NCBI GenBank assembly: GCA_040767085.1
Contig: JAXGPF010000003.1
Coordinates: 512,001-576,000 of the forward strand
Source of the DNA: Kiritimatiellia bacterium
GTDB lineage: Bacteria; Verrucomicrobiota; Kiritimatiellia; JAAZAB01
DNA length: 64,000 bases
Direction: 5' to 3'
Part shown: piece by piece, positions 5,101 to 23,011 of the stretch
Layout of the letters: the number at the start of each line of letters is the position of its first letter
How positions within the stretch are numbered: position 1 is the first letter of the stretch
Program-made: the position numbers and the translations under genes
The notes under the pieces: model-generated
Seen by the model: the letters and a program-made list of their open reading frames with translations, nothing else
Told to the model about the DNA's origin: nothing
Database searches by the model: none

Positions 5101-6508
5101 CCAGCCATTTAAAGAAGGGAAACACCTCGCTGAAGCTGTAATTCCCCGCGCCGTCCGTCACCCGGCCCTGGTAAATGCTGCCGTCGCGGAAACGCAGATT
5201 GACCGCCTGGCCGACAATGCCGGCCTCGCCGGGATCGCGGAATCCATCCTGATCGGCATCGTAGAAAACCGATCCTTCCAGCGCGCCGAACCAGCGGAAA
5301 CACAGGACATTGCCCAGATCGACATCCGCTCCGTTGGTGACCGTGAAGGTGTTGAAGCCGAATAACGCATCCAACGGCATGTCCCAGGTTACCAGTTGAT
5401 AGCTGCCCGGCGGCACGTTGGTGATGACGAACATGCTGTCAGCATCGCAAGGAGCGGCATATAGTCCAACCGGGGCCGCGGCCGGACCGTTCAAACCGAT
5501 CCAGCCGTCCGGTACCGGTTCGCCCGGGAAAAACCCCTGGTTTTTAGGCGGCTTGGAAAAATGGTTGTAAACCAGCCGGCCGCGTACCCGCCCGTTGTCC
5601 GCGGCCGCTGGCGGCGGATTAGTAACCCAAGGAAGGCGCGCGCGATCCACGAACCCGAAGGCCACGTGTTTAAAGCCGCCGCCCCATCCCTCGATAAACA
5701 CCGCCGGCTCGTTGGCCTTAACCCAGGCGTCAATCACCATGGTGCCTTCGATGGTGGAAGTTTGGACCCACCCCGTCCCATCCGGCGGGATGACCGTTAC
5801 GCCATATTTACCCGGCGCCAGAAAACGCACGCGCGCGTCGCCGTTGGCGTCAGTTTGAATCACGCCGCTGCCCATCATATCCACGATATAATTGCCGTCG
5901 GCGTCCATCTCGTACTGGCCGCTGGCGTCCTGCCGGTAGGTGGTGCCCAGCGGATTGCCGAACGCGTCGGCCATCAGCGGCCCGCCCAGATCCGCCAGCA
6001 TGACTTTAAAGTTCGCCAGCCCCGGCTCGCCATTGTCATAAACATTATTGATCGGGTTGTGGTCCTGGAATACCAGGATCGAAATCTGCGCCGTGGGCAC
6101 CGGGTGCCGGTTGACGACAATCGTCGCGCCGGTTTGCCCGTTGGTAATCAGCGCCGAACCCAAGGTGTGCCCGGCATCGGGCAGAACCGAGACCAGGTAG
6201 CGGCCGGCGGACGGGACGGCGATATTGGCGGCCGCGCCGGCCGTATGCCCGGTGCTGACCAAGGGCGCATAGCTTTTATGGATAGCCAGCGAAATGCTGT
6301 CCGCCACCTGGGCGCCCGGAACGGTCACCGTTGTCGTATCCTCCTCCACCAGCCAGCGGAAACCGCTGACGGCGGCGCCGTTTTCGTCCACCACCTGCAA
6401 GGAAAACGCCGCGGATGACAGGGGGATTGCCGCGGAGACCGCCATGCCTAGTATCCAGGCCAGCACCGGCCATGGGCCCGGCATTCGAACAAGCCGATTA
6501 GCATACAT
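2183..6508 (-). pseudogene. 5' part of giant secreted protein (SdrD-B/CnaB-like repeats, IPT/TIG-like segment, right-handed beta-helix), truncated by IS
   Basis: Signal peptide; GSVFYDADQDGFRDPGE-type SdrD-B motifs; IQDAVDAAAAGDLILVHPGVY beta-helix start; the last 20 aa of the 1462-aa ORF are read from the IS end; RBS AAGGAG. Confidence 0.85.
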
Positions 6509-6538
6509 ATTTAATTCTCCTTAAAAACCGCCGTGACT

Positions 6539-6566
6539 GCGCCGGCCCAAAGGCCGGGGCCGGCGC
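6539..6566. other. GC-rich intergenic hairpin (RNA stability or attenuation element)
   Basis: GCGCCGGCCC-N8-GGGCCGGCGC, no clear U tract. Confidence 0.35.
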
Positions 6567-6586
6567 CATAGTTCAACAAGGACGGA

Positions 6587-7903
6587 TTACCGCCCCGTGC
6601 CGGCCGGCTTGTAACCAGGGCCGCCCAGCATCACTCCCACTTCGGAGGCGTAATCCTGAGTGGACAGCAAGGCGCGCCAGGCGCCGGTGGTTTCCTGGTA
6701 AAGGGCCGGGTCCGCCAGACCATCCCCGTCGTAATCCGCCGGCGCCGGAATGAAGCCGGGACCGCCAAAGGCCAGGTCGGTGATGATTATGTCATCCAGG
6801 CTGGACAACAAGATCATCCAGGCGCCGGCGCTTTCCTGGTAAAGGGCCGGGTCCGCCAGACCATCCCCGTCGTAATCCGCCGGCACCGGGGTGAACCCGG
6901 GGCCGCCGAATGTGCCGGTGACCTCCTGATAATCATCGGCGGAAAGCATCCCGGCCCAAAGCCCGGTTGCTTCCTGATACAGGGCAGGATCTGTAATGCC
7001 GTCGCCATCGTAATCGGCGGCGACGGCCTTGTAACCGGGGCCGCCGAAGAACTGGGACACTTCCGCATACTGGTCATCCGACAGGCGCGCAGCCCACTGT
7101 CCGGTGAGTTCCTGGTAAACCGCCGGATCGGTCTTGCCGTCGCCGTCGTAATCGCCCTGGGCCGGGAGATAGCCCGGGCCGCCGACTTGGATGTAGCCGA
7201 CCGCCAATATCTGACTGCTCCACAGACCCGTGGATTTCTGGTACACCGCCAGGTCCGTAATCCGGTCGCCATTGTAATCGCCGGGAACCGGCAGATAGTC
7301 CGGGCCGCCAAACAGGCCGCCGGTTTGTTGGTAGCCGCTGCCTGAGAGCAGTAAATACCAGAATCCGGCGCTTTCATTGTAAACCACCAGGTCCATCAGG
7401 CCGTCGCCGTCATAATCGCCGAACGCACTGTCGCCCGCCGCGAAATTGCGCTGATATTCCATGGCCATCAATGTGCGCGGGGAAATATCCACCGTCACCG
7501 GCGTGGTAGCGCCGGGCAGGGGCGAAACCGACATGTCGCCGTAGCGGCTGATAATGGCCGCATCGCACGGGCCGGGGTCGGCGCAATTGTAGACCTTGAT
7601 ATAGAGATAGCCGCCTTCGTATTGGGTTCCGCTCCCGAATGTGCGCGGGCCAAAATTAAAACACCCCTCCAGCGTGGTGTAATCGCGCGCCAGCAGCACG
7701 GGATTCGCATAATTCGTCGCGGGCGTGTAATATAATTCCACCAGCGAGCCGCGCGGCAGATTGGCGTTAGCGCCCGGCGTGGCAGGATCGTTGAGGCCAT
7801 TGGAAGCCCGCCATTGCACGTTGATCCTGGCGGACGCCGCTAACGTCATCATTGCGTAAATCGCCGCGCAAGTGGCGGCGGCCGTTAAGGTTTTACTTTG
7901 CAT
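6587..7903 (-). CDS. Secreted protein with C-terminal FG-GAP/VCBS-like repeats
   Basis: Start MQSKTLT with AGGAG RBS; signal peptide; six D[YF][DN]GDGxxDxxxY repeats. Confidence 0.85.
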   Translation of the reverse strand: MQSKTLTAAATCAAIYAMMTLAASARINVQWRASNGLNDPATPGANANLPRGSLVELYYTPATNYANPVLLARDYTTLEGCFNFGPRTFGSGTQYEGGYLYIKVYNCADPGPCDAAIISRYGDMSVSPLPGATTPVTVDISPRTLMAMEYQRNFAAGDSAFGDYDGDGLMDLVVYNESAGFWYLLLSGSGYQQTGGLFGGPDYLPVPGDYNGDRITDLAVYQKSTGLWSSQILAVGYIQVGGPGYLPAQGDYDGDGKTDPAVYQELTGQWAARLSDDQYAEVSQFFGGPGYKAVAADYDGDGITDPALYQEATGLWAGMLSADDYQEVTGTFGGPGFTPVPADYDGDGLADPALYQESAGAWMILLSSLDDIIITDLAFGGPGFIPAPADYDGDGLADPALYQETTGAWRALLSTQDYASEVGVMLGGPGYKPAGTGR

Positions 7904-7955
7904 TGTTATTCTCCTGATGGGGTTGAATGATTGACGGCGAGTTGACTTAAAAGCG

Positions 7956-8669
7956 TTAAGGATATGCATATGGTTTAACCTCCGTCCAATTGGTTGCGCC
8001 GCGCGCATTCAGCCAGAATCCCTGGCCGGGCGGCAGCACTAGGTCCCGGCTCCACCTGCCGTTGTGTTTGGCGGAGGTCCGAAAGGCCCCGGCGGTGGAA
8101 TCGAAGACAATGATGGCGCTCCCCTCGGCCGCCGCCGCGGCAAACGCCGTGTTGGTCCAGCGCATCTCCACGGGATAGGCATAGCCGACAAGATTGACTG
8201 CCTCCGGGCCGCAGGCATCCAGGGGCACATCCGCCACCGGGAGCGACCTGGAATCCGGCGCTTCACCAGTCAGATATATTTCGAAGGCGGAATGAACGCT
8301 ATCGCCCACCTGCAGCCAGAACGTTTTGCCCACCAGGTTGTTCGTCCCGGGCCGCCAGGCGCCGAGTAATTTGACTTCCGCGGCATCGCCCGCCGAATAA
8401 TTTTGGATCACGGCATCCCAAAACACGATGGCGGAACCGTTCGGCAGATGCGCCATGATGTCATTCACCGTGACCACCTGCCGATCCAGTGGCATCAGCG
8501 GATAGTGCATCTGGTAGAGCCCGCGCCGGGCTACGGTGAATTTGACATACGCCGCCACATTCCGGCTGGCTACCGCCGGGGGCGTCTGGGCGGAAAGATT
8601 TGTTCCCAGCAACCAGGCCCCGCTGATGGCAAACACCGCCGCGACCCGCAACTCCATCAAACTTTTCAT
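7956..8669 (-). CDS. Hypothetical exported protein
   Basis: 237 aa, AAGGAG RBS, signal peptide, two internal repeats ending GKTFWL / GQGFWL. Confidence 0.75.
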   Translation of the reverse strand: MKSLMELRVAAVFAISGAWLLGTNLSAQTPPAVASRNVAAYVKFTVARRGLYQMHYPLMPLDRQVVTVNDIMAHLPNGSAIVFWDAVIQNYSAGDAAEVKLLGAWRPGTNNLVGKTFWLQVGDSVHSAFEIYLTGEAPDSRSLPVADVPLDACGPEAVNLVGYAYPVEMRWTNTAFAAAAAEGSAIIVFDSTAGAFRTSAKHNGRWSRDLVLPPGQGFWLNARGATNWTEVKPYAYP

Positions 8670-8747
8670 AACCGCTCCTTTCCGTCCAGGCGTAACGCCA
8701 GGTTTTTTAATACGCGCTCATCCTATCAAGATGTTATTTCCTGTGAA

Positions 8748-9194
8748 TCAGGGGCAACCTGAGATCGCCCTGCGCTTTTCCCGATGTTCCGCCGGCCCGA
8801 TTTGATCGGACGGACGGCCGGCGACATACTGTTTTCCGGCGCCGACGCTCCGGATTGCCGGAATCAATTCTTCCAAAGCGCGGGGCTTGCAGACAAAGCC
8901 AAGCGCGCCGGCCTCCAGCACCGCCTGGATCAGAATCGGCGCGGAGTAATTTGAAAACACGATGACCTGCGTTCCCGGGCATTCCCCCATGATTGCCCAG
9001 GTGGCGTCGATGCCGTTCATCCGCGGCAGCATAATATCCATCACCACGACATCGGGACGGAGCTGCCGGACCAGCGCCAGCGCTGTTTCCGCCGACCCGA
9101 CATCCGCCACGACATCCAAATCCTTTTCCTGGCCGATCAGGCTTTTCACTTGTTTCCGCATTGGGATATGATCGTCCACCAGTAACACTTTCAT
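8748..9194 (-). CDS. Response regulator, NarL-type receiver domain without DNA-binding HTH
   Basis: MKVLLVDDH, VVVMDIMLP (phospho-Asp), S and K conserved; ends about 25 aa after the receiver. Confidence 0.85.
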   Translation of the reverse strand: MKVLLVDDHIPMRKQVKSLIGQEKDLDVVADVGSAETALALVRQLRPDVVVMDIMLPRMNGIDATWAIMGECPGTQVIVFSNYSAPILIQAVLEAGALGFVCKPRALEELIPAIRSVGAGKQYVAGRPSDQIGPAEHREKRRAISGCP

Positions 9195-9542
9195 GTTTTT
9201 CAATTGCCCCTGGATGCCATGCATATCCGCGGCGGCGGCCGTCTGACCAATGCGCCGCAACTGTTCCGGCGGAAACGGATTCCCGCCTTTCTGATTATGA
9301 TTGTGCCGTAAACCGCGGCCGGGGCCAATCGGGGAAAGCCTGATGCTCCCCGGCGTAAAACCCTATTCAAAGCGCCGGCAAAATCCGCAATCATACTTGC
9401 CTTCGCCGGCATTTCGGCGTATAAAACCAAGCGGCCCGACAATGCCCCCGGAAAGCATGGCCGAGGCGCGCTGGCCGCGCAGGCTTGACAGCGGCGGGGC
9501 ATTGGCAAATTGCGCCTGACATTCTTGGGAAAGCAATGGAAG

Positions 9543-12500
9543 ATGCATCCAGATAAATCCGGCGGCATCCAGCAAAATACCCCCCGCACACCCGCCGCAA
9601 GCGACCAGCTCCGTCCTGCGGTCGCCCCGGACAGCGCTGCCACGGAAAATTGGCTGTCCGCAGTCCTGGCAGCCCTCCCGGTGGGCGTGGCCATCACGGA
9701 CGACCGGGGCGTACGCATTCGGGCAAACGCCGAATTCGAACGCATCTGGAAAGGCCTGCAGCCGATCGTACGGGATGCCGCCGGCCCGACCGTTTATCAA
9801 GCTTGGTGGGCGGATTCCGGCAAACCGGTCCAGCCCGATGAATGGGCTTCCGCCCAGGCCGTGAACAAAGGCGAGACCGTGACCGGCCAGGTTCTGGAAA
9901 TCCAGCGACCCGACGGCACCCGCGGGTATATCGTCAACAGCGCCGCCCCGTTCCGGGACGACGCCGGCCGTATTGCCGGCAGCGCCGTGGCGATCCAAGA
10001 CATTACCGAACTGCGCCAGACCCAGTCGGAGATTGCGCACCTGGCTTCCTTCCCCATGCTGAACCCGCAGCCGGTGGTCGAGGCGGACATGGAAGGACAA
10101 GTGCTTTTCATGAATCCGTCAGCCCGGCAATTATTCCCGGATTTGAAACAGCTCGGGCCCAAGCATCCCTGGCTGGCGGGTTGGAACAGGGTGGCGCAGG
10201 CCTGCCGCCAAAGCGGCGGCGTCATCAGCGGATCCCGTGAAGTCACGCTTGGCGACAGTTCTTACCTGCAATCAATCTGCTATACCCCGCACCGCAACTG
10301 TGTGCGCATATACGGCATCGACATCACCGCGCGCAAACGCGCCCAGGAAGCCTTGCAGCAACTCAACGCCGAATTGGAACGCCGCGTGGCCCGGCAAACC
10401 GCCGAAATCCGCGAGAAAAGCGCTTACAACCGCCGCCTGATCGAAACCAGCCCGGACCCGCTGGTGACGATCGGACCGGACGGTAAGATCACGGACGTCA
10501 ACACGGCGACGGAAAAAGTGACGGGGCGGTCCCGGACGGAGCTGATCGGCACCGATTTCCTGGATTACTTCACGGAGCCGGAACGGGCGCGTGCGGGGTA
10601 CCAGCAGGTCTTCAAGGAAGGCCGGATCGGCGATTACCCGCTGGAAATCCGGCACCGGGACGGGCATGTCACGTCCGTCATTTACAACGCCTCGGTCTAC
10701 CGCGACGCGCAGGGGAAAGTCGCGGGGGTTTTCGCCGCCGCCCGCGACATCACCCAGCGCAAGCGCGCCGAGGAGCTGGTGCTGGCTGAGCGCCAGCGTC
10801 TTTATGACGTGCTGGAGACGCTGCCGGTTTACGTGGTGCTGCTGGCGCATGATCACCGCATGCCCTTTGCCAACCGGTTTTTCCGGGAGCGATTCGGCGT
10901 TGCCGGCGGCAAGCGCTGTTTTGAGCACCTTTTTAACCGGACCGAAGCCTGTAAAGACTGCGAGTCCTACAAGGCGCTGGAAACGAACGCGCCGCACCAT
11001 TGGGAGTGGACCGGGCCGGACGGACGCAACTACCAGATCCACGACTTCCCTTTCACGGACAGCGACGGGTCGCCCATGATCATGGAAATGGGCCTTGATA
11101 TCACGGATACCAGGCAGGCGCAGGCGGCGCTCCAGCAAGTCAACGAGACGCTGGAACAGCGTGTGGCTGACCGCACGGCGCAGTTGGCCGCCAGCGAGCA
11201 GCGCCTCAGGCAAGCGGAAGAGATCGCGCATCTCGGCAGTTGGGAGTTGGACATCGCGGGAGGCCGGCTGGCATGGTCGGATGAAGTCTTCCGCATCTTC
11301 GGCCTGGCGCCGCAGGAGTTCATGCCGACCTACGCGGCTTTCCTGGAGCGCGTGCATCCCGACGATCGGGCGATCGTGGATGAAGCTTATCAGAGTTCGG
11401 TGCGTGAAAACCGCGACACCTATGAAGTCGAACACCGGATCATCCGCAAGGACAACGGCGCCGTCCGCACGGTTCACGAGAAATGCGAACATTTCCTGGA
11501 TGCCGGCGGCCGGATTATCCGTTCGGTCGGCATGGTGCACGACATCACGGAACGTAAATGGGCGGATGAAGTGCTGCGGCGTTCGCACGACGAACTGGAA
11601 CAAATGGTCAAGGAACGCACCGCGGCCCTGGCGGATAGCGAACGGAAATACCGCGAACTGGTGGAGAATGCCAACAGCGTCATCATGCGCATCACCCCCG
11701 ACCATACCATCACGTTCTTCAACGAGTATGCGCAGCGCCTCTTTGGTTATACGCCGGCGGAACTGCTGGGCCGGAATGCGGTCGGCACTATCATCCCGTC
11801 CGTGGATTCGGCGGGACTCGATCTGCGAGCCATGATACAGGCAATCACGGCGGACCCCGACGGATACACGATCAACGAAAACGAGAATATCTGCAAGAAC
11901 GGCAAACGGGTCTGGGTGCATTGGTCCAACCGCGCCGTGCGCGACGAAAAGGGCCGGCTGGTCGAGATTCTATGCGTGGGGACGGACGTGACCGCACGCA
12001 AGCACTCGGAAGAACGCGCCAAGGTGACCGGCGCCATGCTTGCGCTCTTTGCCCGGAAAACCACCCGCCGCGATTATCTGGAAGCCGTGACGGATTTGCT
12101 CCAGCAAGTTTTCGGATGCCGCTGCATCGGCATCCGGATCCGCAACGATGATGGGGAGATCCCCTACGAGGCCAGCAAGGGATTCACACCGGAGTTTCTG
12201 GCATCCGAATCGCGCCTGCACCCCGACCGGCACGCGTGCGTCTGCCCGCGCATCATGAAGGCGCATCCGTTGCCGTGCGATCGCGCGGCGCTGAGTCCGG
12301 GCGGTTCCTTTTTCTGCAACGACACCGCGGTTTTCTTCAACACCATGCAGAAGGCGGATCGGCGGTTGTTCCGGGGCGTTTGCGCCAAATACGGATTTGC
12401 CTCCCTCGCCGTCCTACCGATCCGCTACCAGGGCCGGATGTTAGGCGCAGTCCACCTAGCCGATGAACGACCGGACAGGTTTCCCCCGGAGGTAGTCGAA

Positions 12501-13628
12501 TTCATTGAGACCATCATTCCGCTGGTCGGCGAGGCGTTGCACCGGTTCGACATGGAGGCGAAGTTGCGGAAGAGTGAAGAGCGCTACCGTTCGCTGGTGA
12601 TCGCCACGGCGCAAATCGTCTGGACCACTAACGCGGCGGGCGAGGCGACGGACGACCTGCCGGGCTGGCGGAAATTCACCGGCCAGAGCCGGGAGGAAAT
12701 CCGCGGGCAAGGCTGGATCGGCGCCGTGCACCCGGACGACCGCCAGCGGACGGCCGCCGTGTGGGAGCAAGCGGTCGCCACACGAACCTTGTATAACACG
12801 GAATATCGCCTGCGGCGCTTCGACGGCTGCTACCGCGACTTCGCTGTCCGCGGCGTACCCGTGATCGCAACGGACGGATCCGTGCGGGAATGGGTGGGAA
12901 CTTGCACCGATATTTCCCAGCAGAAGGCCATGGAGTCGGAAACCGCCCGTTACCAGGAACGCCTGCGCGGCCTGGCGGAGCGGCTGGCGGCCAGCGAAGA
13001 GCAGGAGCGTTGGCAAATCTCCCGCTACGTCCACGACACCATCATTCAGAATCTTTCGCTGGCCAGCATCAAGATTGGCGCCGCACAGAAAATCCTGCCC
13101 GCGGCCAGGCGCAAAAAGGATGGCGCCGAACTGCAAACGACCCGGACGCTGGTGGATGATGCCATCGCCGAATGCCGCACGGTGATGTCCGACCTGACGC
13201 CTTCCCTGCTCTACGACCTCGGGCTGGTGCCCGCGTTGCGGGAACTGGCGGACAAGATTCAGCAACAGCATGGCGTCCAGGTATGCGTCGCTGAAGAAGG
13301 CGCAGCTATCGCCATGGCCATTCCGCTCCGCGGCCTGATCTTCCAGTCCGCGCGTGAACTCATCATGAATGCCTTGAAACACGCCGGGCCGCGGGTGGTG
13401 CGCGTGACTGTCGCCGGCCGCAAAGGCGAAATCCTGATTCGTGTTCAAGACGATGGCGCGGGATTTGACCCGGACAAACTGGAGCGGCGCGACCCGCGTC
13501 AGGGCGGATTCGGCCTGTTCGGCATCCGCCTGCGCATCGAGAGCCTGAAAGGCTGGCTGGCGATCGAATCGGCGCCGGGAAAAGGCACCACGGCGGTAAT
13601 TACGCTGCCGGTTGCGGATGCGGGATGA
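9543..13628 (+). CDS. Cytoplasmic multi-PAS/PAC + GAF sensor histidine kinase (HisKA_3/NarX-like)
   Basis: Several PAS/PAC repeats ending DIT; GAF; EEQERWQISRYVHD H-box; NALKHA, DDGAGF, GFGL and GKGT boxes; no TM segments; start could be 9510. Confidence 0.92.
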   Translation: MHPDKSGGIQQNTPRTPAASDQLRPAVAPDSAATENWLSAVLAALPVGVAITDDRGVRIRANAEFERIWKGLQPIVRDAAGPTVYQAWWADSGKPVQPDEWASAQAVNKGETVTGQVLEIQRPDGTRGYIVNSAAPFRDDAGRIAGSAVAIQDITELRQTQSEIAHLASFPMLNPQPVVEADMEGQVLFMNPSARQLFPDLKQLGPKHPWLAGWNRVAQACRQSGGVISGSREVTLGDSSYLQSICYTPHRNCVRIYGIDITARKRAQEALQQLNAELERRVARQTAEIREKSAYNRRLIETSPDPLVTIGPDGKITDVNTATEKVTGRSRTELIGTDFLDYFTEPERARAGYQQVFKEGRIGDYPLEIRHRDGHVTSVIYNASVYRDAQGKVAGVFAAARDITQRKRAEELVLAERQRLYDVLETLPVYVVLLAHDHRMPFANRFFRERFGVAGGKRCFEHLFNRTEACKDCESYKALETNAPHHWEWTGPDGRNYQIHDFPFTDSDGSPMIMEMGLDITDTRQAQAALQQVNETLEQRVADRTAQLAASEQRLRQAEEIAHLGSWELDIAGGRLAWSDEVFRIFGLAPQEFMPTYAAFLERVHPDDRAIVDEAYQSSVRENRDTYEVEHRIIRKDNGAVRTVHEKCEHFLDAGGRIIRSVGMVHDITERKWADEVLRRSHDELEQMVKERTAALADSERKYRELVENANSVIMRITPDHTITFFNEYAQRLFGYTPAELLGRNAVGTIIPSVDSAGLDLRAMIQAITADPDGYTINENENICKNGKRVWVHWSNRAVRDEKGRLVEILCVGTDVTARKHSEERAKVTGAMLALFARKTTRRDYLEAVTDLLQQVFGCRCIGIRIRNDDGEIPYEASKGFTPEFLASESRLHPDRHACVCPRIMKAHPLPCDRAALSPGGSFFCNDTAVFFNTMQKADRRLFRGVCAKYGFASLAVLPIRYQGRMLGAVHLADERPDRFPPEVVEFIETIIPLVGEALHRFDMEAKLRKSEERYRSLVIATAQIVWTTNAAGEATDDLPGWRKFTGQSREEIRGQGWIGAVHPDDRQRTAAVWEQAVATRTLYNTEYRLRRFDGCYRDFAVRGVPVIATDGSVREWVGTCTDISQQKAMESETARYQERLRGLAERLAASEEQERWQISRYVHDTIIQNLSLASIKIGAAQKILPAARRKKDGAELQTTRTLVDDAIAECRTVMSDLTPSLLYDLGLVPALRELADKIQQQHGVQVCVAEEGAAIAMAIPLRGLIFQSARELIMNALKHAGPRVVRVTVAGRKGEILIRVQDDGAGFDPDKLERRDPRQGGFGLFGIRLRIESLKGWLAIESAPGKGTTAVITLPVADAG

Positions 13629-13663: not shown

Positions 13664-14122
13664 TCAGCCGAAAAGAAACTCCGCCGCGGCTTCCGGCTCG
13701 ATCCGGAAGGCCGAGCCCCGGCCCTCGAAAAACCCGTGCGCCTCGATCAGATGGACATTCAAATCCGTCCAAGCTAGTGTCGCGCCCGTCTTCGGCCGCT
13801 CGGCAGTCGTCACCCGCTTGGCATAACGCCCCGGATGCCCCCAGGGACAGACCAGCCAGCCCTTGCATTCCTCGCAACTCACCAGCAAATCCCCGCCGCC
13901 GGCGTCCACCTGCGTCCCCAATCCCGTCTGGGCCAGCGCCGTCAACTCGCGCATCCGCCGCGCCAGCAGCGCGGCGGTCACGCCGCATTTTGCCAGCGCG
14001 GCGGCATCGGCTTGAATGATCTCCGCGGCACTGCGCCGGTCATGCCCCATAAAGCCGTCCGCCACCAGCGCCGACGACCGCAGCAATTCATCCAACTTCC
14101 GGTCCCGGGGCGATGTCTTCAT
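13664..14122 (-). CDS. Hypothetical Cys/His-rich protein, last gene of the Rnf/Nqr-like operon
   Basis: GAGGAG RBS overlapping the upstream stop; 152 aa with CPWGH and HLIEAHGFFEGxGSxFR motifs. Confidence 0.8.
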   Translation of the reverse strand: MKTSPRDRKLDELLRSSALVADGFMGHDRRSAAEIIQADAAALAKCGVTAALLARRMRELTALAQTGLGTQVDAGGGDLLVSCEECKGWLVCPWGHPGRYAKRVTTAERPKTGATLAWTDLNVHLIEAHGFFEGRGSAFRIEPEAAAEFLFG

Positions 14123-14133
14123 AACCGCGCTCC

Positions 14134-15234
14134 TCATGCAAATTTATCATAGAAAATCCGGCCGGGCGGCATCCCCAGCGAAGTCAGCACTTGCTGCGCC
14201 GCATCTATCAGCCCCGGGCTGCCGCAGAGATATCCCTCGTGCCCGCTGAGATCGGCATGCCGCCGGCGGACCGCCTCCGTCACCAATCCCGTCTCACCCT
14301 GCCAGCCGCTGGAGGCTTCCGGCCGCGAAACCACGGGCACGAAGGTAAAATCCGGCAAAGCCCGGGAGAATTCCGCCATCTGATCCAGCAGGCACAAGTC
14401 GCGCGTCGAGTTGCCGCCGAAAAAATAGATCGTCTTGCGCCGGTCATGCGCCTGGCGCATGGCGTGCAGGATCGCGACAAACGGCGCCATGCCGCTGCCG
14501 CCCGCCAGAAACACCATCGGCGCGGCGGCGGCGCTGAGGCGGAAATCGCCGTAGGGGCCGTTAAACTTCACCGCATCGCCGGTTTTCAAGACATCAAAGC
14601 ACCAGGTCGTGCAAATCCCCCCCGGCACGCGCCGGATGATCAATTCCACGGCGCCGGCGTCGCCCGGATCGGACGCTATCGAATAAGCCCGATAAACCTC
14701 CTCCCGGTTGCCCCGATACCGCGGGCACAAAAGCTGCACATACTGCCCGGCCACAAACTCCAGCGCCGGCGGGTCAACCAACTCGAACCGGAAGCGCTTC
14801 ATGTCATACGTCAAATCCTCGATTTTCGTACAGCGCGCCGCGTATTCGCGGATGTTGAACAACTCCTCCGGAATTTCGATCGCCAGGTCATTCCGCACCT
14901 TCACCTGGCAGGACAGCCGCAGATTGTCCGCGATTTCGCCGGGCGTCAAAAAAGGCTGCTCGGTCGGCAAAAGCGCGCCGCCCCCGGCCAGCACCCGCAC
15001 CTTGCAGGCGCCGCAGGTGCCCCGGCCGCCGCAGGCGCTGGGGATGAAGATCCGGGAATCCGTCAGGGCCGACAGCAGCGGCTTGCCGCCCTGGACGGTG
15101 AGTTCCCGCTTGCCGTTGAGCGTGATCTTGCACTCGCCGTAATTGGCGATCAGGCGCTCGGCCACAACCACCATCAGCGCCAGCCCGGCGGCCAGGCCGC
15201 TGACGATCAATACCGCGGTGAAAATTCCTGTCAA
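14134..15234 (-). CDS. NqrF-like membrane-anchored [2Fe-2S]/FAD/NAD(P)H oxidoreductase
   Basis: N-terminal TM helix; SACGGRGTCGAC...RLSCQ 2Fe-2S motif; RAYSIAS, GGSGMAPF, YLCGSP and FYDKF FNR-family motifs; TTG start with GAGGA RBS. Confidence 0.9.
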   Translation of the reverse strand: MTGIFTAVLIVSGLAAGLALMVVVAERLIANYGECKITLNGKRELTVQGGKPLLSALTDSRIFIPSACGGRGTCGACKVRVLAGGGALLPTEQPFLTPGEIADNLRLSCQVKVRNDLAIEIPEELFNIREYAARCTKIEDLTYDMKRFRFELVDPPALEFVAGQYVQLLCPRYRGNREEVYRAYSIASDPGDAGAVELIIRRVPGGICTTWCFDVLKTGDAVKFNGPYGDFRLSAAAAPMVFLAGGSGMAPFVAILHAMRQAHDRRKTIYFFGGNSTRDLCLLDQMAEFSRALPDFTFVPVVSRPEASSGWQGETGLVTEAVRRRHADLSGHEGYLCGSPGLIDAAQQVLTSLGMPPGRIFYDKFA

Positions 15235-16464: not shown

Positions 16465-17075
16465 GGCCCGCCTCCCCCGGCCCGCATCGCCTGCAGCCAC
16501 ACCGCGAGCCGCTCATTGATCAACTGCTCCAGCCGGCGGCAGGTCTGCGTTGCGCCGGTAATGCCATGCACCTCGTGCTCGCCCGGCGTTACCGCCGCCG
16601 GCCGGATGCCGATGGGGCGGTCTGGCGGCCCGAGCGTCAAGCCCGCAAACTGCCCGCGAAAATCCTTTTCCGTAATGCGGGCGCCCAGCCCCGGGGTCTC
16701 GCTCTGGTCATAAAATGCCAGGCCGGTAATCGCCGCGAGGTCGTGGGACACCCCCACCACCCCGCGGATCGGCGCCCAAAATCCCTGGCCGGCCACCGGC
16801 ACCGCGTAACCGGCGGTCCGGCCGTCCTTGCGGTAGACATACGCCCCGGCCGCGTCCGCGGATTTTTCGAAAAGCCGGTTGAACAACGCATGCACCCGCG
16901 GCGACGGCGGCACGGCAATCTCGGGGAACGCCTCCAGCACGGCGCGCTCGAACATCAACTGCTCGTTCGCCCTCACGCGCACCTGGGTCAGCCGCGAGAA
17001 TCCGATCAGCACCGCGCTCACGCAGGCGGTGGCCAGAAACATATACGCCACCGGAAACCAGGACCGGTTTTTCAT
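16461..17075 (-). CDS. RnfG/NqrC-family FMN-binding subunit
   Basis: N-terminal TM; GFW, ETPGLGA and flavinylation motif ITGATQT; ATGA overlap. Confidence 0.9.
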   Translation of the reverse strand: MKNRSWFPVAYMFLATACVSAVLIGFSRLTQVRVRANEQLMFERAVLEAFPEIAVPPSPRVHALFNRLFEKSADAAGAYVYRKDGRTAGYAVPVAGQGFWAPIRGVVGVSHDLAAITGLAFYDQSETPGLGARITEKDFRGQFAGLTLGPPDRPIGIRPAAVTPGEHEVHGITGATQTCRRLEQLINERLAVWLQAMRAGGGGP

Positions 17076-18172
17076 GGCCGCGCCTCCCCCCCATTCCGGG
17101 GCTGAACCGGCCGGCGGCCTTGCCAGGACTGCGCGCCGTAATCGATGATCGGCGCGAACATGTTGCCCAGTAAAATGGCGAACATCAGGCCGCCGTTGAA
17201 AATCGAGAAATTACGGATCACCAGGGTGGCCACGGCGATCAGGATGCCGTAATAGAGGCGTCCCAGCTCCGTCCGGGGCGAGCTGACCGGATCGGTTGCC
17301 ATAAAGAACGCTCCCAGCAGAAATCCCCCGCCGAACACCGCCGGCCAGGCCCCCGGCACGGGCTTGACGCCCAGCCAGAAGAGGCCCTGGTTCAACGCCG
17401 CATAGGTTAGAATCACCGCCAGGATCGTCGTGCGGCTGGCGGTTTTCGTCCAGAACAGATAAACGCCGCCAAGTAAAATCAGCAGCGCGCTGGTCGCCCC
17501 CATCGTGCCGCTGATGTTGCCGAAAAGCTGCGCCTTCAGCAGCGCGCCGGGGCGGACGGCCACCTGCTCGCGGTCGCCGACCGCCGGCGGTATCGCGGCG
17601 GCCGCCCCCACCGCCGATGACAGCGCCAGTTGCCCCGATTTTAAATAGGCCATCGGCGTCGCGCTGGTCGTCGCATCGGCGCCGTCCGCCCGCACCGCGG
17701 TGGTCCAGCGATCCAGGGCGCCGGGCGGCCCGGCGGCCGCCGGAGCCCACACCCCGGTCATGGCCACCGGAAAACAAATATAGACAAAGCACCGTCCGGC
17801 GACCGCCGGATTGAAGATGTTGCGCCCGAATCCGCCGAAAACCTCCTTGGAGAAAATCACCGCGAACCCCATGCCCACTGCCAGCACATGCCAGCCCACC
17901 CCCGGCGGCATGATCAGGCCAAACAGCGCCGCCGTCACAAACACCGCCTCGCTGACCGGCTCGCCGCGCAGCCGGCAAAACAACCACTCCAGCAAAAAGC
18001 CCCACGCGCAGCAAAACGCGATCATCGCCAGCGAGCGCCAGCCGAAATAATACACGCTGCCGGCCATACAGGGGATCAAGGCCAGCAGCACCCGGCGCAT
18101 CGCCGGCTGCCGGCGCAACCAGCCCGCCCGCGCAGGATTCCTGATGATCTGCCAAAGCATACCGGGCTTCAT
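17072..18172 (-). CDS. RnfD/NqrB-family membrane subunit
   Basis: KEVFGGFGRNIFNPA, DATTSATP flavinylation site, FMATDPVSSP; start set at 18172 because the upstream in-frame extension is MITE sequence. Confidence 0.92.
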   Translation of the reverse strand: MKPGMLWQIIRNPARAGWLRRQPAMRRVLLALIPCMAGSVYYFGWRSLAMIAFCCAWGFLLEWLFCRLRGEPVSEAVFVTAALFGLIMPPGVGWHVLAVGMGFAVIFSKEVFGGFGRNIFNPAVAGRCFVYICFPVAMTGVWAPAAAGPPGALDRWTTAVRADGADATTSATPMAYLKSGQLALSSAVGAAAAIPPAVGDREQVAVRPGALLKAQLFGNISGTMGATSALLILLGGVYLFWTKTASRTTILAVILTYAALNQGLFWLGVKPVPGAWPAVFGGGFLLGAFFMATDPVSSPRTELGRLYYGILIAVATLVIRNFSIFNGGLMFAILLGNMFAPIIDYGAQSWQGRRPVQPRNGGEARP

Positions 18173-18512: not shown

Positions 18513-19349
18513 TTATCCGTATTTTTTGTCCGCCGACGGCATAACCTGCCGGCCGCCGCATTGAATCGCGGCGCGGTATTGCCGGGGCGACAGGCCGATT
18601 TGCTTTTTAAAAAGCTTGGTGAATTGCGCGGGGTCGGCATAACCGGCGCGGTCGGCGGCCTCTTTTACCGGCAAAACTTCCTCCTCCAGCCATGCGGCGG
18701 CTTGCAGCATCCGGCAGTGCAGCAGGTAATCGTAAAAACTCCGGCCGCAATGCCGGCGGAACAGGCGCCGGAAATGACCGACACAGACATGCATTTCCAG
18801 CGCCAGCGCCGGGGCCTGGTATGCGGCGAAGGGCGCCAGCCGCATGCGTTCAGTCCAGGCCCGGATTTTTTGCTCATAAACATCCACGGCTCCGGCTGGC
18901 GAAGCCAAGGCCGCCATTTGCAGAAGACGCTCCAACAGGATCACGCTTTCCGCCGCCATGCCCGGCCCTCGCTCTTTGAGTATGGCCAGCAACCGTGAAA
19001 ATATTTCGCGTACGGCCCCGGGCTGCGCGGCAAACACGAACCCATCCCCTGACAACCCGGTAAAACCGTCCTGAACCAGCCGCCGGGCGCGCGGTCCTCG
19101 AAGGATGAGGTAATAATGATCCCAGCCAGCCGCGTCCGCCGGCCCATACTCATAAATTTTACCAGGCATATGCCAGAAGAGCGCCGGCCGCTCCAGGATG
19201 TGGCGCAGGCCGCCATCCACGCGCCAATACATCCGGCCGGCATGCATGTATTCCACGGTATAAAAATCGGGGAACGCGCTTTTTACATGCACCCGGCACC
19301 CGGGTATATGCCGGCCCATGATCACCTTCAAATCGTCAAAATAAGCCAT
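18513..19349 (-). CDS. AraC-family transcriptional regulator
   Basis: N-terminal cupin-like domain; C-terminal HFRRLFRR...AGYADPAQFTKLFKKQIGLSPRQYR. Confidence 0.92.
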   Translation of the reverse strand: MAYFDDLKVIMGRHIPGCRVHVKSAFPDFYTVEYMHAGRMYWRVDGGLRHILERPALFWHMPGKIYEYGPADAAGWDHYYLILRGPRARRLVQDGFTGLSGDGFVFAAQPGAVREIFSRLLAILKERGPGMAAESVILLERLLQMAALASPAGAVDVYEQKIRAWTERMRLAPFAAYQAPALALEMHVCVGHFRRLFRRHCGRSFYDYLLHCRMLQAAAWLEEEVLPVKEAADRAGYADPAQFTKLFKKQIGLSPRQYRAAIQCGGRQVMPSADKKYG

Positions 19350-19471
19350 ATCCGTATATTCATATATGACAACTACTGGCGCATATTTGCCATTTACTTT
19401 TAGATATTCAATAGAATACGATAATTCCAGCTTGGAAATCAATGTTTGTTTGCGACAAACACAGGAGTAAC

Positions 19472-20530
19472 ATGCAAGGCAAAATCAAACGCAACCAGGA
19501 TTTCATGCGCCGGCTGTTTACCGGCCGGCCGGAGCGGCACGGGCTGGCGGTTTCCGTGACCCGGCCGCCCATTCCGGAGGAATTGGGCGATTATGCCATA
19601 TCCAGCCGGCCGGTGCGCGACTGGATTCCATGGTTCCGCGAGCATTATGCCGCGCAATGCGCATGGTTAAAGGCGTTTGACGACGATTCCGTCCCGTTCA
19701 TCAACCTTTTCACCAATACCGGCGTCTTTGCGGCGGCCTTCGGCTGCCCGCTGGAGAAAGTTCCCGGCAGCAGCGCCTGCGCCCGCCCGATCGTGCATTC
19801 CGCCGCCGAGGCCGCGCGCTTGCCGGAACCGGACTACCGCTCCGCCCCCATCCTGGCGCGGCTTTTTGAAATGGCGGATGCCTTGCGCGCGGAATTCGGG
19901 CCGGACGTGCCGTTGAGTCCGCCGGATATCCAGAGCCCGCTGGACATTGCCGCACTGATCTGGGACAAGTCGGAGTTTTTTGTCGCCATGCACGAGGAGC
20001 CGGCAGCGGTAGCGGAACTGGTGGACAAATGCACGCGCCTGCTTTGCGCATTCATTCCCGCCTACATCCGCCATGTCGGGGCAATCAATACCTTGTGTTA
20101 TGCCCGCTGGTATGCCCCGGGCGACCTGGGTTGTTACGTGGCGGAGGACGAATGCGGAAGCATCAACCCGGAGATGTTCGAACGGTTCGGCATGCCGGGC
20201 TTAAGGGCGTTAAGCCAGGCGGCCAACGGGCTGTTCATGCATTCCTGCGCCAACGCCGACCATCAATATCCCCTCTTGCGCACGCTCCCGAATTTGCGCG
20301 GATTCAACCGCGTTTTTACCAAAGCCCAGAACTTTTCCATGCCGCAGCGCATGTTGGATTCCTTTGCCGACCGCTCCGTGCTGATGCTCGGCGGCCCGGT
20401 GCAGAAAGGGCTGGACATGCTGGCCGCGGCGCCGGCCGGGACGCGGTTCCTGTTTGCCATGGGATTCAAGGAAATCAACGACGACGCCCGGCGGGCTTAC
20501 GATGAAATGCGCCGGCGCTGCGAAAGATAA
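19472..20530 (+). CDS. Uroporphyrinogen decarboxylase / MtaA-CmuA fold protein
   Basis: AGGAG RBS; DIQSPLDIAALIW, EDE...INPEMFERF and HSC motifs. Confidence 0.75.
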   Translation: MQGKIKRNQDFMRRLFTGRPERHGLAVSVTRPPIPEELGDYAISSRPVRDWIPWFREHYAAQCAWLKAFDDDSVPFINLFTNTGVFAAAFGCPLEKVPGSSACARPIVHSAAEAARLPEPDYRSAPILARLFEMADALRAEFGPDVPLSPPDIQSPLDIAALIWDKSEFFVAMHEEPAAVAELVDKCTRLLCAFIPAYIRHVGAINTLCYARWYAPGDLGCYVAEDECGSINPEMFERFGMPGLRALSQAANGLFMHSCANADHQYPLLRTLPNLRGFNRVFTKAQNFSMPQRMLDSFADRSVLMLGGPVQKGLDMLAAAPAGTRFLFAMGFKEINDDARRAYDEMRRRCER

Positions 20531-20556
20531 TCCAGCGTGGTCTTTACATACGGAGC

Positions 20557-20585
20557 AAAGCGGCGTCAAGCCGCCGCACTCCATA
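20557..20585 (-). repeat. REP-like palindrome between convergent genes
   Basis: Minus strand TATGGAGTGCGGCGGCTTGACGCCGCTTT: GGAG head plus GCGGCG/CGCCGC stem; may also act as a terminator. Confidence 0.55.
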
Positions 20586-20590
20586 TAAAA

Positions 20591-23011
20591 TCACGGCAAC
20601 GCGGCATCCAATCGCGGGAGCGGCCGGAGACGCGCGCGGGCTGGCGCCTTCGGCGCATCCTGCTGCCGGAGACGCGCCCGGATTCCCGTGGCCCGGCCCC
20701 CATGGGCGTCCAGGGCAATGCACAGCGCGTGCGCGCCCGGACTCAAATCCAGCGGCACTACCGCTTTGTCCGTCCCAACCGGGGCGCAGCCGCCCGGATC
20801 GCACCAAATTGGCTGGCAATCCAACCACACCTTGACCGGGCCGTCATAGCCCAGCTCCAGCGCCAGCCGCATACCCGTCCGGCAGATCATCCGGACATGG
20901 TAATATACAACTTTTTGTCCGGTTTTCCCGCCATCCGCCAACTCCGGCACTTCGCACAAGGTCAAAGGAAAATCGCGCACCGTGCCCGGCCCCGGGACTG
21001 CCGGGTAAGACAGCGCGCTAATCTTGCCGGAATAAGACTGCAGGCTGCTGACAAAATACCTGGTGATATACCCGGGCGGCAGGCGCGTCTTGAACTCAAA
21101 GATATCAGCCTTCCCCGTCAGACAACGGCCGGCCTGGCGGGCGCGCCGCTGAAGGTTGCGCCAGGCGGAGGGACGGCTGTCGGCCAGCCATAACTGGCGG
21201 TGGCGGCGCATCAGGCCGGTTAATTCACCAGCCAACCGCCGCCGGGCGCGCATCGTATGTTTGCCGCCGGATCCCAGGATCGCCAGTTTGCGCGCCGCAT
21301 GGCGGAGGGTATCCACGGCGAAAATCCAGGCTGGAAATATTTTATCAGGATCAACGCCATGCACCGCGGATGCACGGTTAATATCGGCGCGGCGAGCATC
21401 CAGGCGTTCCAGCACCGCCGCCCCCAACGGGGCATCCACCAGCAGGCTGCGGCGTTGCCATTGCCCGCCACTGAAAACCCGGTCAATCCGCGGATACGCC
21501 GGCACACGGCGGTCGGCGTCCGCGAAAAACATTTTGGGCCAGAAGCCATGGCCGCCGACCTGGGTGATTTCGCCCAGTTCATTTAAAACGCCCGGCAGCC
21601 GCCGGTCAAAACTGTTTAAAAACAACCGGCAAAACCGTGTGTGGTAATCCGCCGCGTCCGCCGCCGGATTCCAGGATTGTTCGGCGCCGAAAAGCAACCC
21701 ATGCCATTCGCAAGCCGGCAGATGGAAATGGCCGCCATCGCCCCAAACCGTGTTGAGCAATCCAGCCGCGCCCTGCCGGGCCGCCGTCCGGGCCGCCGCC
21801 GTAATATTGGCCATGGCCACGGGCAGCCGCGGAAACAAACCACCGTATGAATGGGTGCTGGGACAGGCATACACCGGCCGGCCCTGTCGCGCATTGTCCC
21901 CGACGCCGGGGAACGCATACTCCGGATGATACCCCCAATCCAGGATGGTGATATCCTTGGGCAACCCGGCCGCCAATTCCGGATAATGCCGGAGAATATC
22001 GCCCCAGCACATCATCCGCTTGCCGTGTTTTTCGCATAGGGCATGCAGTCTCAAAAGATGGTCAACATAGACCCGGCCTTTCCCTTTCTGCCGGCACAAT
22101 TCGTAACTTTGCCCATATCCCAAATCCACCGTCTCATCGCAGCAGACATTGAAATTAACCGAACTGAACAGCGGCAGCAATTCCCCATACAACGAATCCA
22201 GAAACTTGTAACCGGCGGGATTAGCCGGCGAGAGCGTAAAGCCTTTGAATTTTTGACTGCGGAACCATTCGGCCAGCCACTCCCGCGCCTTGGGGTCCGG
22301 CGTGACATAACCTTTCAAGCCCAGGCCAAAGTCTTCTGCCAGCCGGCGGTAAGGCGGAAGTTTTAATACCGTTTCCATATGCCCGAACGACGCCAGCGAC
22401 GGCACCAACTCGATGAAATTTTCCCGGCAATATGCGTCCAAATCCAGAATATCCGCCGCCGTTATGGGCGAAGCGCCGCGCCCGATCTCCGGGTGCGCGC
22501 GGAACCGGAAGGTATGCTGCATGTAGAGGGAAAGCTGGTTGATCTTGTAGCGCGCCAGGATATCCGCCATGCGCTTCAAGGCCGTGAGGGTCGGCACCCG
22601 GCCGCGGGCAATGTCCAGGTAAACGCCGCGCGCCGGTATCGCCGGCCAATCGTCTATCGTCAGGCATGGGATTATTTTATTATCCGCCTGCGCCAGAATC
22701 TGCCGGAGCGTCTGCCAGCCGTAAAAAGCGGCGCGGACGGAGCTGGCATGGATTTGCATTCCCTTGAGGTGAATCCGCAATTGATACGCATCCGGTTTCA
22801 TCCGATCCGCCAAATTCAGCGTAATCGCATCGCGGATGGCGGGATTGGCAATATTTATCCCGACCGCACCGACCGATTGACTTATTCGACGGGCCAGCGG
22901 ATATAAGCGTGCGTCCGAAATCCCCAGCGTCGGTTTGGCCGGCATGCTGAAACGGCCGGCATCAAGGCACAGGCGTTGGGGAATCGGGAGTAAAACAAGC
23001 TTTGTTTGCAT
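20591..23011 (-). CDS. GH20-family beta-N-acetylhexosaminidase
   Basis: GH20b N-domain (IDDWP..RGVYLDIARGRVP), SFGH, catalytic CCDET, WGD. Confidence 0.88.
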   Translation of the reverse strand: MQTKLVLLPIPQRLCLDAGRFSMPAKPTLGISDARLYPLARRISQSVGAVGINIANPAIRDAITLNLADRMKPDAYQLRIHLKGMQIHASSVRAAFYGWQTLRQILAQADNKIIPCLTIDDWPAIPARGVYLDIARGRVPTLTALKRMADILARYKINQLSLYMQHTFRFRAHPEIGRGASPITAADILDLDAYCRENFIELVPSLASFGHMETVLKLPPYRRLAEDFGLGLKGYVTPDPKAREWLAEWFRSQKFKGFTLSPANPAGYKFLDSLYGELLPLFSSVNFNVCCDETVDLGYGQSYELCRQKGKGRVYVDHLLRLHALCEKHGKRMMCWGDILRHYPELAAGLPKDITILDWGYHPEYAFPGVGDNARQGRPVYACPSTHSYGGLFPRLPVAMANITAAARTAARQGAAGLLNTVWGDGGHFHLPACEWHGLLFGAEQSWNPAADAADYHTRFCRLFLNSFDRRLPGVLNELGEITQVGGHGFWPKMFFADADRRVPAYPRIDRVFSGGQWQRRSLLVDAPLGAAVLERLDARRADINRASAVHGVDPDKIFPAWIFAVDTLRHAARKLAILGSGGKHTMRARRRLAGELTGLMRRHRQLWLADSRPSAWRNLQRRARQAGRCLTGKADIFEFKTRLPPGYITRYFVSSLQSYSGKISALSYPAVPGPGTVRDFPLTLCEVPELADGGKTGQKVVYYHVRMICRTGMRLALELGYDGPVKVWLDCQPIWCDPGGCAPVGTDKAVVPLDLSPGAHALCIALDAHGGRATGIRARLRQQDAPKAPARARLRPLPRLDAALP

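Follow-up and report, generated by a model that had tools for sequence, protein, structure and literature searches.

A small conserved protein encoded behind NqrF-type reductases: a candidate link to rubredoxin and oxygen defence

The operon and its last gene

Gene X occupies positions 13664..14122 of the minus strand in a 64,000-nucleotide stretch of DNA (hereafter the window) from a Kiritimatiellia bacterium (GenBank assembly GCA_040767085.1). The sequence and its translation give an ATG at 14122, a TGA stop at 13666-13664 and a soluble protein of 152 residues; an alternative in-frame ATG at 14137 would lengthen the product to 157 residues. X is the last gene of a minus-strand operon, in which it follows genes B, C, D, E and F, homologues of subunits of the Na+-NQR and Rnf complexes. 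The protein belongs to a large unnamed family, unmatched in fold, that would tie an NqrF-type reductase, usually on an Rnf/Nqr core, to rubredoxin and to the means by which anaerobes defend themselves against oxygen.

F and X are tightly packed. The minus-strand text at their junction reads ATGAGGAGCGCGGTTATG, and the ribosome-binding site (RBS) of X shares one base with the TGA stop codon of F (14136-14134; Table 1), an overlap that had been described in an earlier note on this DNA. The nearest relative of X, in genome G101, has an identical arrangement of stop codon, RBS and start codon; a TGA flagged within that match as a possible selenocysteine codon is merely the stop codon. The three motifs singled out in the earlier note are all present in the translation: CEEC at C83-C86, CPWGH at C92-H96 and HLIEAHGFFEG at H124-G134. 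In a single metatranscriptome two perfect 151-nt contigs were found, on F and on E, and none on X, which is too thin to bear on the expression of X.

All five subunits, B to F, fall below the NCBIfam equivalog cut-offs, whether those of Nqr or those of Rnf. F scores 240.4 bits against nqrF (cut-off 295); E scores 220.9 bits against nqrE (cut-off 247.55) and 209.9 against rnfA, both below cut-off, as are the 79.5 bits of C against nqrC (cut-off 144) and its 57 bits against rnfG; B scores 206.6 bits against rnfD (cut-off 207.05) and 193.4 against nqrB (cut-off 349.9). The best solved relative of F is V. cholerae NqrF (E 1.1e-52, with an alignment in two stretches), and the residues invariant in the alignment of F are C68, C74, C77, C109, R182-x-Y184-S185 and G245-G-S-G248. 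Subunit C contains ITGATQT, which we take to resemble the flavinylation motif. The start of B is uncertain: the longest open reading frame (ORF) begins with GTG at 18277, and the matches in relatives begin about 4044 nt before X. Searches of the window's proteins with Pfam and NCBIfam found no NqrA, RnfC or RnfB in the operon.

The likeness to Na+-NQR (NqrABCDEF) thus lies in five homologous genes, their order B-C-D-E-F and the NqrF architecture of F, whereas NqrA is missing from both operon and genome, the subunits score below the equivalog cut-offs and F is about 40 residues shorter than V. cholerae NqrF (408 residues). Rnf (RnfABCDGE) shares the same membrane core, B scoring as RnfD (just below its cut-off) and D and E as RnfE and RnfA, but the window operon lacks RnfC and RnfB, has its input through an NqrF-type subunit, and lies on a different contig from the canonical Rnf of the same genome.

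That genome (G000) is 95% complete. It contains no match to NQRA_N (PF05896) and hence no recognisable NqrA, no MenA above cut-off, no MqnA/D and no cytochrome bd. Because of these absences a quinone acceptor is doubtful, and the gene content lends weak support to an acceptor other than quinone; the lack of detectable quinone biosynthesis is a further difference from Na+-NQR. The canonical Rnf cluster (C24:307996-313113) contains the only rnfC match above cut-off (524 bits), so that this genome carries the hybrid without NqrA as well as a canonical Rnf. The one copy of X is on contig C22, and no X stands beside the Rnf cluster. The only rubredoxin lies at C3:213795-216935 (L086), apart from the hybrid operon, together with a rubrerythrin and a ferritin-like gene; this group is a minimal cluster for defence against reactive oxygen species (ROS). 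ApbE is encoded at C27:55624-56478, and no match to NqrM was found in a search that had no positive control.

X is a real gene rather than a chance ORF, because homologues occur in 288 species genomes (one genome per species was scanned) and in 1486 clusters. The latter come from a profile search of 1.84 billion representatives, which gave 1486 clusters at 50% identity with E<=1e-3, 513 with E<=1e-10 and 81 with E<=1e-30. A word-indexed search with X gave 335 candidates, of which 132 are homologues at E<=1e-3; these are without Pfam domains, and every one that is named bears the label 'hypothetical'. X itself has no Pfam or NCBIfam family (best E-values 0.18-0.26), in agreement with the earlier judgement, made by eye, that it does not resemble ApbE, NqrM, RnfH or RnfB; the NqrM profile (PF04400) gives no match at E<=1, and the ApbE profile (PF02424) gives none. 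Nor does X match rubredoxin (PF00301, two CxxCG / CPxCG knuckles) in Pfam, and it has a single conserved Cys. The isoelectric point of X (median 6.2) offers no clear charge complementarity to acidic rubredoxin.

The AlphaFold2 (AF2) model of X is confident (pLDDT 95.1, pTM 0.89) and consists of three helices, a four-stranded sheet and two further helices, with no membrane helix. Foldseek returned no match to this model at E<=0.001 (best E 0.39), a wide VIA-align search of 48,161 chains gave a best Z of 2.9, and a profile search of PDB sequences gave matches at chance level only. Likeness to NqrA or RnfC is found neither by sequence nor by Foldseek or VIA-align, a missing match being no proof of a different fold. 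Among named families, Pfam DUF7919 (PF25535; 23 of 30 hits, scores 0.91-0.95) comes closest by language-model features. Its profile (threshold 27 bits) does not match X at E<=1 or any part of the window's genome at E<=10; two of 28 distant relatives of X weakly match its C-terminal half (E 0.027 and 0.082; 15.1 and 13.5 bits). DUF7919 has no known function, and no mention of it was found in the literature searched.

The family also includes long proteins in which the X domain occurs two or three times (P0130, 885 residues; P0258, 2506; P0225, 385). The two copies in P0225 are in tandem, each preceded by a similar helical segment of about 60 residues. None of the three proteins has a Pfam family at threshold; PAH_ZNF598 appears on P0258 below threshold (E 0.0017, 19 bits, cut-off 25).

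Gene neighbours of X in relatives

The genome loci compared here are the best 80 of the 288 species with a relative of X; the subunits of the window operon served as tblastn queries. The gene next upstream of X, on the same strand, is F in every one of the 77 loci with at least 750 nt of upstream sequence (the other 3 of the 80 have too little), and the gap between the two genes is at most 21 nt in 66 of the 77. Where at least 4.2 kb of upstream sequence is available (56 loci), B is present in 53. A second, distant subfamily (HGF[YF]QG) was sought on metagenome contigs with a degenerate DNA pattern, which gave at least 80 loci, 64/80 with an X-like ORF and 16/80 without. Among the matches listed, F is upstream in 39 of the 42 loci with at least 400 nt upstream (L091, L131 and L155 are examples of F upstream; the apparent 454-residue 'fusion' at L131 is an artefact of ORF calling in a high-GC locus). 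The earlier note had made its proposal depend on linkage to Rnf/Nqr-like genes, and in both samples that linkage is there.

An even set of 201 genomes of the window's phylum gives a wider view. X is found in 11 of them and adjoins an F orthologue in nine. The F profile matches in 38 genomes, 27 of which lack X; in 25 of these 27 the profile matches in two stretches within NqrF-length ORFs. The sixth gene is a further difference from Na+-NQR, being absent from the genomes of this sample that have NqrF-length genes.

F and X also occur without the membrane subunits. In L022, L023 and L026 the pair stands without B-E genes and F has 337-341 residues, the N-terminal membrane helix being absent in L023 (341 residues) and L026 (337). 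B-E are likewise missing directly upstream in L049, L097, L121 and L125, and in the phylum genomes G173, G182 and G160 the matches to F, adjoining X, start only at profile positions 30-36. Because pairs of F and X occur with a soluble F and without B-E, X belongs with F and not with the membrane core. A predicted complex of X with residues 34-366 of F, with 2Fe-2S and FAD, scored 0.67, 0.78 and 0.69; controls scored 0.00 and 0.01 when X was replaced and 0.50 when F was replaced, values that count neither in favour of binding nor against it.

These observations bear on an idea of the earlier note, that X, as a candidate sixth component of the complex, could replace the missing output subunit; it would then take the structural place of NqrA or RnfC on the cytoplasmic face of B and receive electrons from the riboflavin or FMN of B. 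The operon does lack NqrA, RnfC and RnfB, B is present in nearly all loci with enough upstream sequence, and no quinone biosynthesis was found in the genome; moreover, NqrBCDEF without NqrA is already on record for C. ultunense and Pseudothermotoga lettingae, with an acceptor proposed to be of 'more negative potential than quinone' (PMC5924567). Yet X adjoins F, never B, in the genome loci, no likeness to NqrA or RnfC was found by sequence or in the fold searches, and units of F and X, with or without rubredoxin, are known in which B-E genes are missing and F has no membrane helix. A genuine, conserved sixth gene has thus been borne out, while the place assigned to X in the complex is probably wrong; as an output subunit at the membrane core, X is very unlikely.

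In two loci the match to F is in two pieces: L061 (6677-8953, with about 1.2 kb between the pieces) and L057 (7787-9000, with a 293-nt gap before X). These may reflect insertion in, or decay of, F with X left intact.

On its other side X is often followed by rubredoxin. A gene for a 53-residue rubredoxin comes directly after X in 35 of the 76 loci with at least 300 nt downstream, and glucose-6-phosphate dehydrogenase (G6PDH) is encoded downstream of X in 26 of the 61 loci with at least 2.5 kb. Upstream, on the same strand, seven defence genes were scored: Fur/PerR, rubrerythrin, peroxiredoxin, flavodiiron protein, desulfoferrodoxin, ferritin and a second rubrerythrin. At least four of these occur in 24 of the 48 loci with at least 8 kb upstream, and 22 of these 24 also have B. 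In L023 and L026 the pair of F and X closes a cluster which, by Pfam, encodes a Fur-family protein, rubrerythrin, peroxiredoxin, flavodiiron protein (ODP/Lactamase_B), desulfoferrodoxin, ferritin and a rubrerythrin-like protein, and G6PDH follows. With the proteins of these two loci as queries, the same co-linear cluster was found to precede a full B-C-D-E-F-X operon in many loci, of which L003 is set out in Table 1. The super-cluster spanning L003:234-11343 recurs in L004, L007, L009, L012, L018, L020, L025, L053, L065, L067, L068, L077 and others, and its hosts are genomes of Phycisphaerae and Anaerohalosphaeraceae. In the literature searched, some of it available in part, we found no description of an Rnf/Nqr-type membrane complex inside an oxidative-stress cluster.

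Stand-alone operons, too, may have single defence genes beside them. In L001, the closest kept genome locus (76% identity), a divergent AhpC/PrxU gene lies upstream of B; a rubrerythrin is encoded upstream in L028, a neelaredoxin gene immediately follows X in L039, and a Fur/PerR-family gene comes after X in L060.

X and rubredoxin are also found in one polypeptide. Fusions in which a rubredoxin (PF00301) forms the C-terminus make up 22 clusters, 21 of them 207-213 residues long and 49-78% identical to P0128. The rubredoxin is a separate canonical domain with invariant Cys knuckles. At L117 such a fusion comes directly after the C-terminal end of F. In an AF2 model of a fusion (pLDDT 89.7, pTM 0.72, linker block 68) the domains are confident, their mutual orientation not, and the model does not point to a fixed interface. 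Two further fusions, of X with a nitroreductase (P0216) and with the ferritin-like domain of a rubrerythrin (P0161), are each a cluster of one member from a short contig; they may be assembly or frameshift artefacts and are treated as leads only. An AhpC/TSA-X 'fusion' (P0131) that lacks about the first 17 residues of X, and P0127, which has an apparent frameshift, were not counted.

The adjacency of F and X, the adjacency or fusion of X and rubredoxin, and the placement among ROS-defence genes are facts at the level of genes. A NAD(P)H-binding flavoprotein encoded with rubredoxin is likewise found in relatives: F has FAD and NAD domains, and rubredoxin follows X in many of these loci, though not in the window. 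That X might carry electrons, one of the roles considered in the earlier note, is plausible and fits both the adjacent rubredoxins and the fusions.

Table 1. Features of the operon in the window and of the super-cluster at locus L003
Sequence	Feature	Positions	Strand	Remarks
Window	AGGAG, RBS of X	14130..14134	-	7 nt 5' of ATG 14122; shares last base of the TGA stop of F (14136-14134)
Window	F, NqrF-like, 366 residues	14134..15234	-	N-terminal membrane helix, 2Fe-2S ferredoxin, FAD and NAD(P)H domains; Pfam Fer2, FAD_binding_6, NAD_binding_1
Window	E/RnfA-like membrane subunit, 199 residues	15245..15844	-	Pfam Rnf-Nqr 1.9e-53; ATG overlaps stop of D
Window	D/RnfE-like membrane subunit, 219 residues	15841..16500	-	Pfam Rnf-Nqr 8.1e-55; nqrD 227.1 bits, cut-off 244.85
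Window	C/RnfG-like FMN-binding subunit, 204 residues	16461..17075	-	Pfam FMN_bind 1.8e-12
Window	B/RnfD-like membrane subunit, 366 residues from ATG 18172	17072..18172	-	Pfam NQR2_RnfD_RnfE 1.1e-83
Window	AraC-family regulator	18513..19442	-	Pfam HTH_18 and AraC_binding; same strand, about 340 nt upstream of B
L003	Fur	234-653
L003	Rubrerythrin (Rbr)	710-1279
L003	Peroxiredoxin (Prx)	1512-2024
L003	Flavodiiron protein (FDP)	2116-3291
L003	Superoxide reductase (SOR)	3396-3767
L003	Ferritin (Ftn)	3811-4311
L003	Second rubrerythrin (Rbr2)	4339-4827
L003	B to F	4957-8939
L003	X	9001-9477
L003	Rubredoxin	9548-9706
L003	G6PDH	9805-11343

Conserved residues and the proposed electron path

Two alignments of the close subfamily (A1, 28 sequences; A3, 26 sequences) share the invariant residues C92-P93-W94, K102, H124, H129, F131-F132-E133-G134, D28, R30 and D39; H96 is about 90% conserved there, and CEEC is not conserved. 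The conserved pattern of X reads G23-F24-x-G26-x-D28-x-R30, D39, G88, C92-P93-W94, K102, H124-x4-H129-G-F-F-E-G-x-G, R140 and P143. Residues were then counted in 215 sequences comprising the window protein, 64 metagenome ORFs and 150 representatives. Kept in these are H124 (199), H129 (200), D28 (183), R30 (185), D39 (195), K102 (196) and R140 (199). The family-wide core is therefore two His, two Asp, one Lys and two Arg residues in and around two glycine-rich loops. Such conservation suits a cofactor or an active site, and the core could bind either a metal, through His and carboxylate, or an anionic ligand. It is this pattern of conservation that suggests a cofactor on X.

On the strength of the gene arrangements we propose, with about even confidence, that X couples the NqrF-type NAD(P)H reductase to rubredoxin-dependent detoxification of oxygen and ROS. 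F adjoins X, X adjoins or is fused to rubredoxin, and the whole lies in a PerR-type cluster with a dehydrogenase that generates NAD(P)H; it is for these reasons that we infer a chain from NAD(P)H through F and X to rubredoxin. X would be the dedicated cytoplasmic partner of F, a NAD(P)H:FAD:[2Fe-2S] reductase. Electrons would pass from NAD(P)H to the FAD and the 2Fe-2S centre of F, then to X, to rubredoxin and to the detoxifying enzymes, candidates for which are flavodiiron protein, rubrerythrin and desulfoferrodoxin, with which anaerobes reduce O2, H2O2 and superoxide. The adjacent G6PDH may supply the NAD(P)H in many relatives. We take X to be redox-active, perhaps with a mononuclear metal, probably iron, on H124, H129 and a carboxylate (D28 or D39); C92 and H96 would then be extra or second-sphere residues in the window's subfamily. 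Binding between the partners, the direction of electron flow, the metal and any pumping of ions are inferred from the gene-level facts.

Several observations weigh against this proposal. The first concern the metal. Position 92 is Cys in 180 and Ser in 24 of the 215 sequences, Ser92 variants occur directly behind F (L092, L097, L115, L140), and position 96 is His in 75, Asp in 74, Gly in 22, Glu in 12 and Cys in 9. Because Cys92 interchanges with Ser and His96 varies, any metal site cannot be the Cys/His site proposed in the earlier note: H-x4-H holds across the family, whereas C-P-x-x-H is a trait of the subfamily and CEEC is not kept. The second concern F. Of the 42 metagenome loci, L119 and L152 have no F upstream and L150 has only a fragment of X; in G178 and G179 X and F lie on different contigs, in housekeeping surroundings; and X is absent from G163, where two F-like genes (40% identity) occur, one of them close to a rubredoxin. 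The genome loci are, furthermore, best matches related to one another, so that the counts overstate their independence. The third concern rubredoxin. About half of the related loci have no rubredoxin or defence genes nearby, and the window operon, which is of the stand-alone form, has neither rubredoxin nor ROS genes beside it. Finally, the 2Fe-2S domain of F might be able to reduce rubredoxin unaided, in which case X might be no electron carrier at all.

It is possible, if on balance unlikely, that X is itself the terminal enzyme: a small reductase, dependent on a non-heme metal or a thiol, that acts on an oxidant, for instance superoxide, peroxide, NO or an oxidised metabolite, and is fed by rubredoxin or by F. 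In rubrerythrin, desulfoferrodoxin and flavorubredoxin the catalytic domains receive their electrons from fused rubredoxin-type domains, and the fusions of X with rubredoxin follow the same logic. The near-invariant polar set (D28, R30, D39, K102, H124, H129, R140), the swap of Cys for Ser at position 92, as is seen in nucleophiles or active-site residues, the company of ROS enzymes and the single-cluster fusions P0216 and P0161 all point the same way. Against this, the tight, translationally coupled pairing of X is with F and not with rubredoxin, and stand-alone BCDEF-X operons, that of the window included, have no adjoining rubredoxin. Moreover, the fold searches found no likeness of X to a known oxidoreductase fold, and P0161 and P0216 are possibly artefacts.

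X may instead be a factor for assembly, maturation or repair of the 2Fe-2S or FAD of F, of rubredoxin iron or of an intramembrane Fe-S centre; it would then be akin to NqrM or ApbE and stand outside the working enzyme, a role that the earlier note had listed among its options. The conserved His/Asp-rich set could bind labile iron, and the clusters include ferritin and Fur-family genes; the search of the window's genome for NqrM, which had no positive control, gave no match; and X is last in its operon, as are apbE and nqrM in the Na+-NQR operon of V. cholerae according to the accessible text of a recent review (PMC12174285). We nevertheless consider this quite unlikely, since diversified covalent fusions with rubredoxin would be unusual for a chaperone, ApbE is encoded elsewhere in the genome, X accompanies soluble F without membrane Fe-S subunits, and no copy of X stands beside the canonical Rnf of that genome.

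The glycine-rich loops, GGFxGxDxR and HGFFxGxGS, with their conserved Arg and Lys, could instead bind a nucleotide or phosphate ligand, and a few members of the family lie apart, among housekeeping genes. On these grounds X might be a regulatory or sensing protein, gating F by redox state or NAD(P)H for example, or else an unrelated small enzyme that is co-transcribed. The fusions with rubredoxin and the near-universal translational coupling to F point instead to a stoichiometric working partner, and X has no DNA-binding or known sensor domain; this possibility is highly unlikely.

If X does couple F to rubredoxin, the membrane-bound form raises the question of the route. There, electrons may first go through D/E, C and B and only then reach X and rubredoxin. 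A doubtful, though far-reaching, extension of the proposal is that BCDEF, X and rubredoxin form an ion-pumping NAD(P)H:rubredoxin oxidoreductase, in which X, with a new fold and a new kind of metal centre, hands electrons to rubredoxin. The drop in potential from NADH to rubredoxin is about 300 mV, which could drive the pumping of ions if electrons pass through D/E, C and B. The ion-pumping form would amount to a 'respiratory' chain free of quinones and cytochromes, by which strict anaerobes would build a Na+ or H+ motive force, and so conserve energy, during the reduction of O2, H2O2 and superoxide by flavodiiron protein, rubrerythrin and desulfoferrodoxin.

Known systems and the surroundings of the operon

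In anaerobes such as Clostridium, Desulfovibrio and Pyrococcus, NADH:rubredoxin oxidoreductase (NROR) passes electrons to rubredoxin and thence to rubrerythrin, flavodiiron protein and superoxide reductase. In relatives of the window operon F, X and rubredoxin hold the position that NROR and rubredoxin hold in Fur/PerR-type clusters of clostridia and sulfate reducers. The reductase, however, is of the NqrF type, with FAD and 2Fe-2S, and not of the pyridine-nucleotide-disulfide type; it usually sits on an Rnf/Nqr core and has the extra partner X. A second comparison is with the reductases of multicomponent oxygenases (BenC, MmoC, P450 reductase 5ogx), to which F aligns over its whole soluble part (E 6e-45 to 1e-28). 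These pass electrons from the 2Fe-2S centre to a separate partner protein, whereas here no oxygenase is nearby and the partner would be X together with rubredoxin.

NqrBCDEF operons without NqrA have been described in Clostridium ultunense, Pseudothermotoga lettingae and P. thermarum, and their authors suggest an acceptor of lower potential than quinone (PMC5924567). The window operon shares with them the gene order, the absence of NqrA and the proposal of a non-quinone acceptor, but in the accessible part of that paper the operons have five genes, and no sixth protein, link to rubredoxin or link to oxidative stress is mentioned. Proteins of the X family exist under the source names Thermotogota and Clostridiaceae, and for this reason the published operons probably carry X too. 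The 2025 review of Rnf/Nqr pumps describes NqrA as being without cofactor and without assigned function (PMC12174285); no mention of an NqrA-less form was found in the available text of that review or of a 2014 evolutionary study (PMC4014512). Other partial systems are described in the latter and in a 2021 survey of flavinylation (PMC8238504). No description of X was found in the literature searched, parts of these papers included; the supplementary tables of PMC8238504 and PMC5924567 may list the gene.

To the NqrA-less operons known before (PMC5924567, as far as available), the present analysis adds a conserved sixth gene, rubredoxin as candidate acceptor, a PerR-type setting of defence against oxygen and ROS, and G6PDH as a candidate source of NAD(P)H for the NqrA-less complex. 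If the proposal is true, then oxygen detoxification in widespread anaerobes (Phycisphaerae, Kiritimatiellia, Lentisphaerae, probably Thermotogota and Clostridia) would run through an Rnf/Nqr-type machine, perhaps coupled to ion pumping, and the energetic budgeting of 'aerotolerance' would change. The family of X, with its many clusters, no name and no recognisable fold, is a clean target for work on structure and cofactor.

Two neighbouring genes may have to do with the control of the operon. The AraC-family gene upstream of B (Table 1) is a possible regulator; in L001 the divergent AhpC/PrxU peroxiredoxin gene stands in its place. At the other end, positions 9510-13628 of the plus strand encode a sensor histidine kinase of 1372 residues, with several PAS domains, GAF and HisKA_3/HATPase_c, which is convergent with X, the stop codons of the two genes being only 35 nt apart. 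The convergent arrangement is preserved in L001, where the kinase has 1371 residues. This kinase may be a redox or oxygen sensor for the BCDEF-X operon.

Farther out, positions 19442-24775 of the window encode a URO-D-like protein, a GH20 hexosaminidase-like protein and a GH3 glycosidase, and positions 2120-8008 an SdrD_B-repeat protein of 1462 residues and an FG-GAP protein. The surroundings thus have the gene content of a polysaccharide degrader, typical of Kiritimatiellia-like bacteria of sludge and digesters, and the sequencing runs that contain DNA of the window are metagenomes of sludge and anaerobic digesters.

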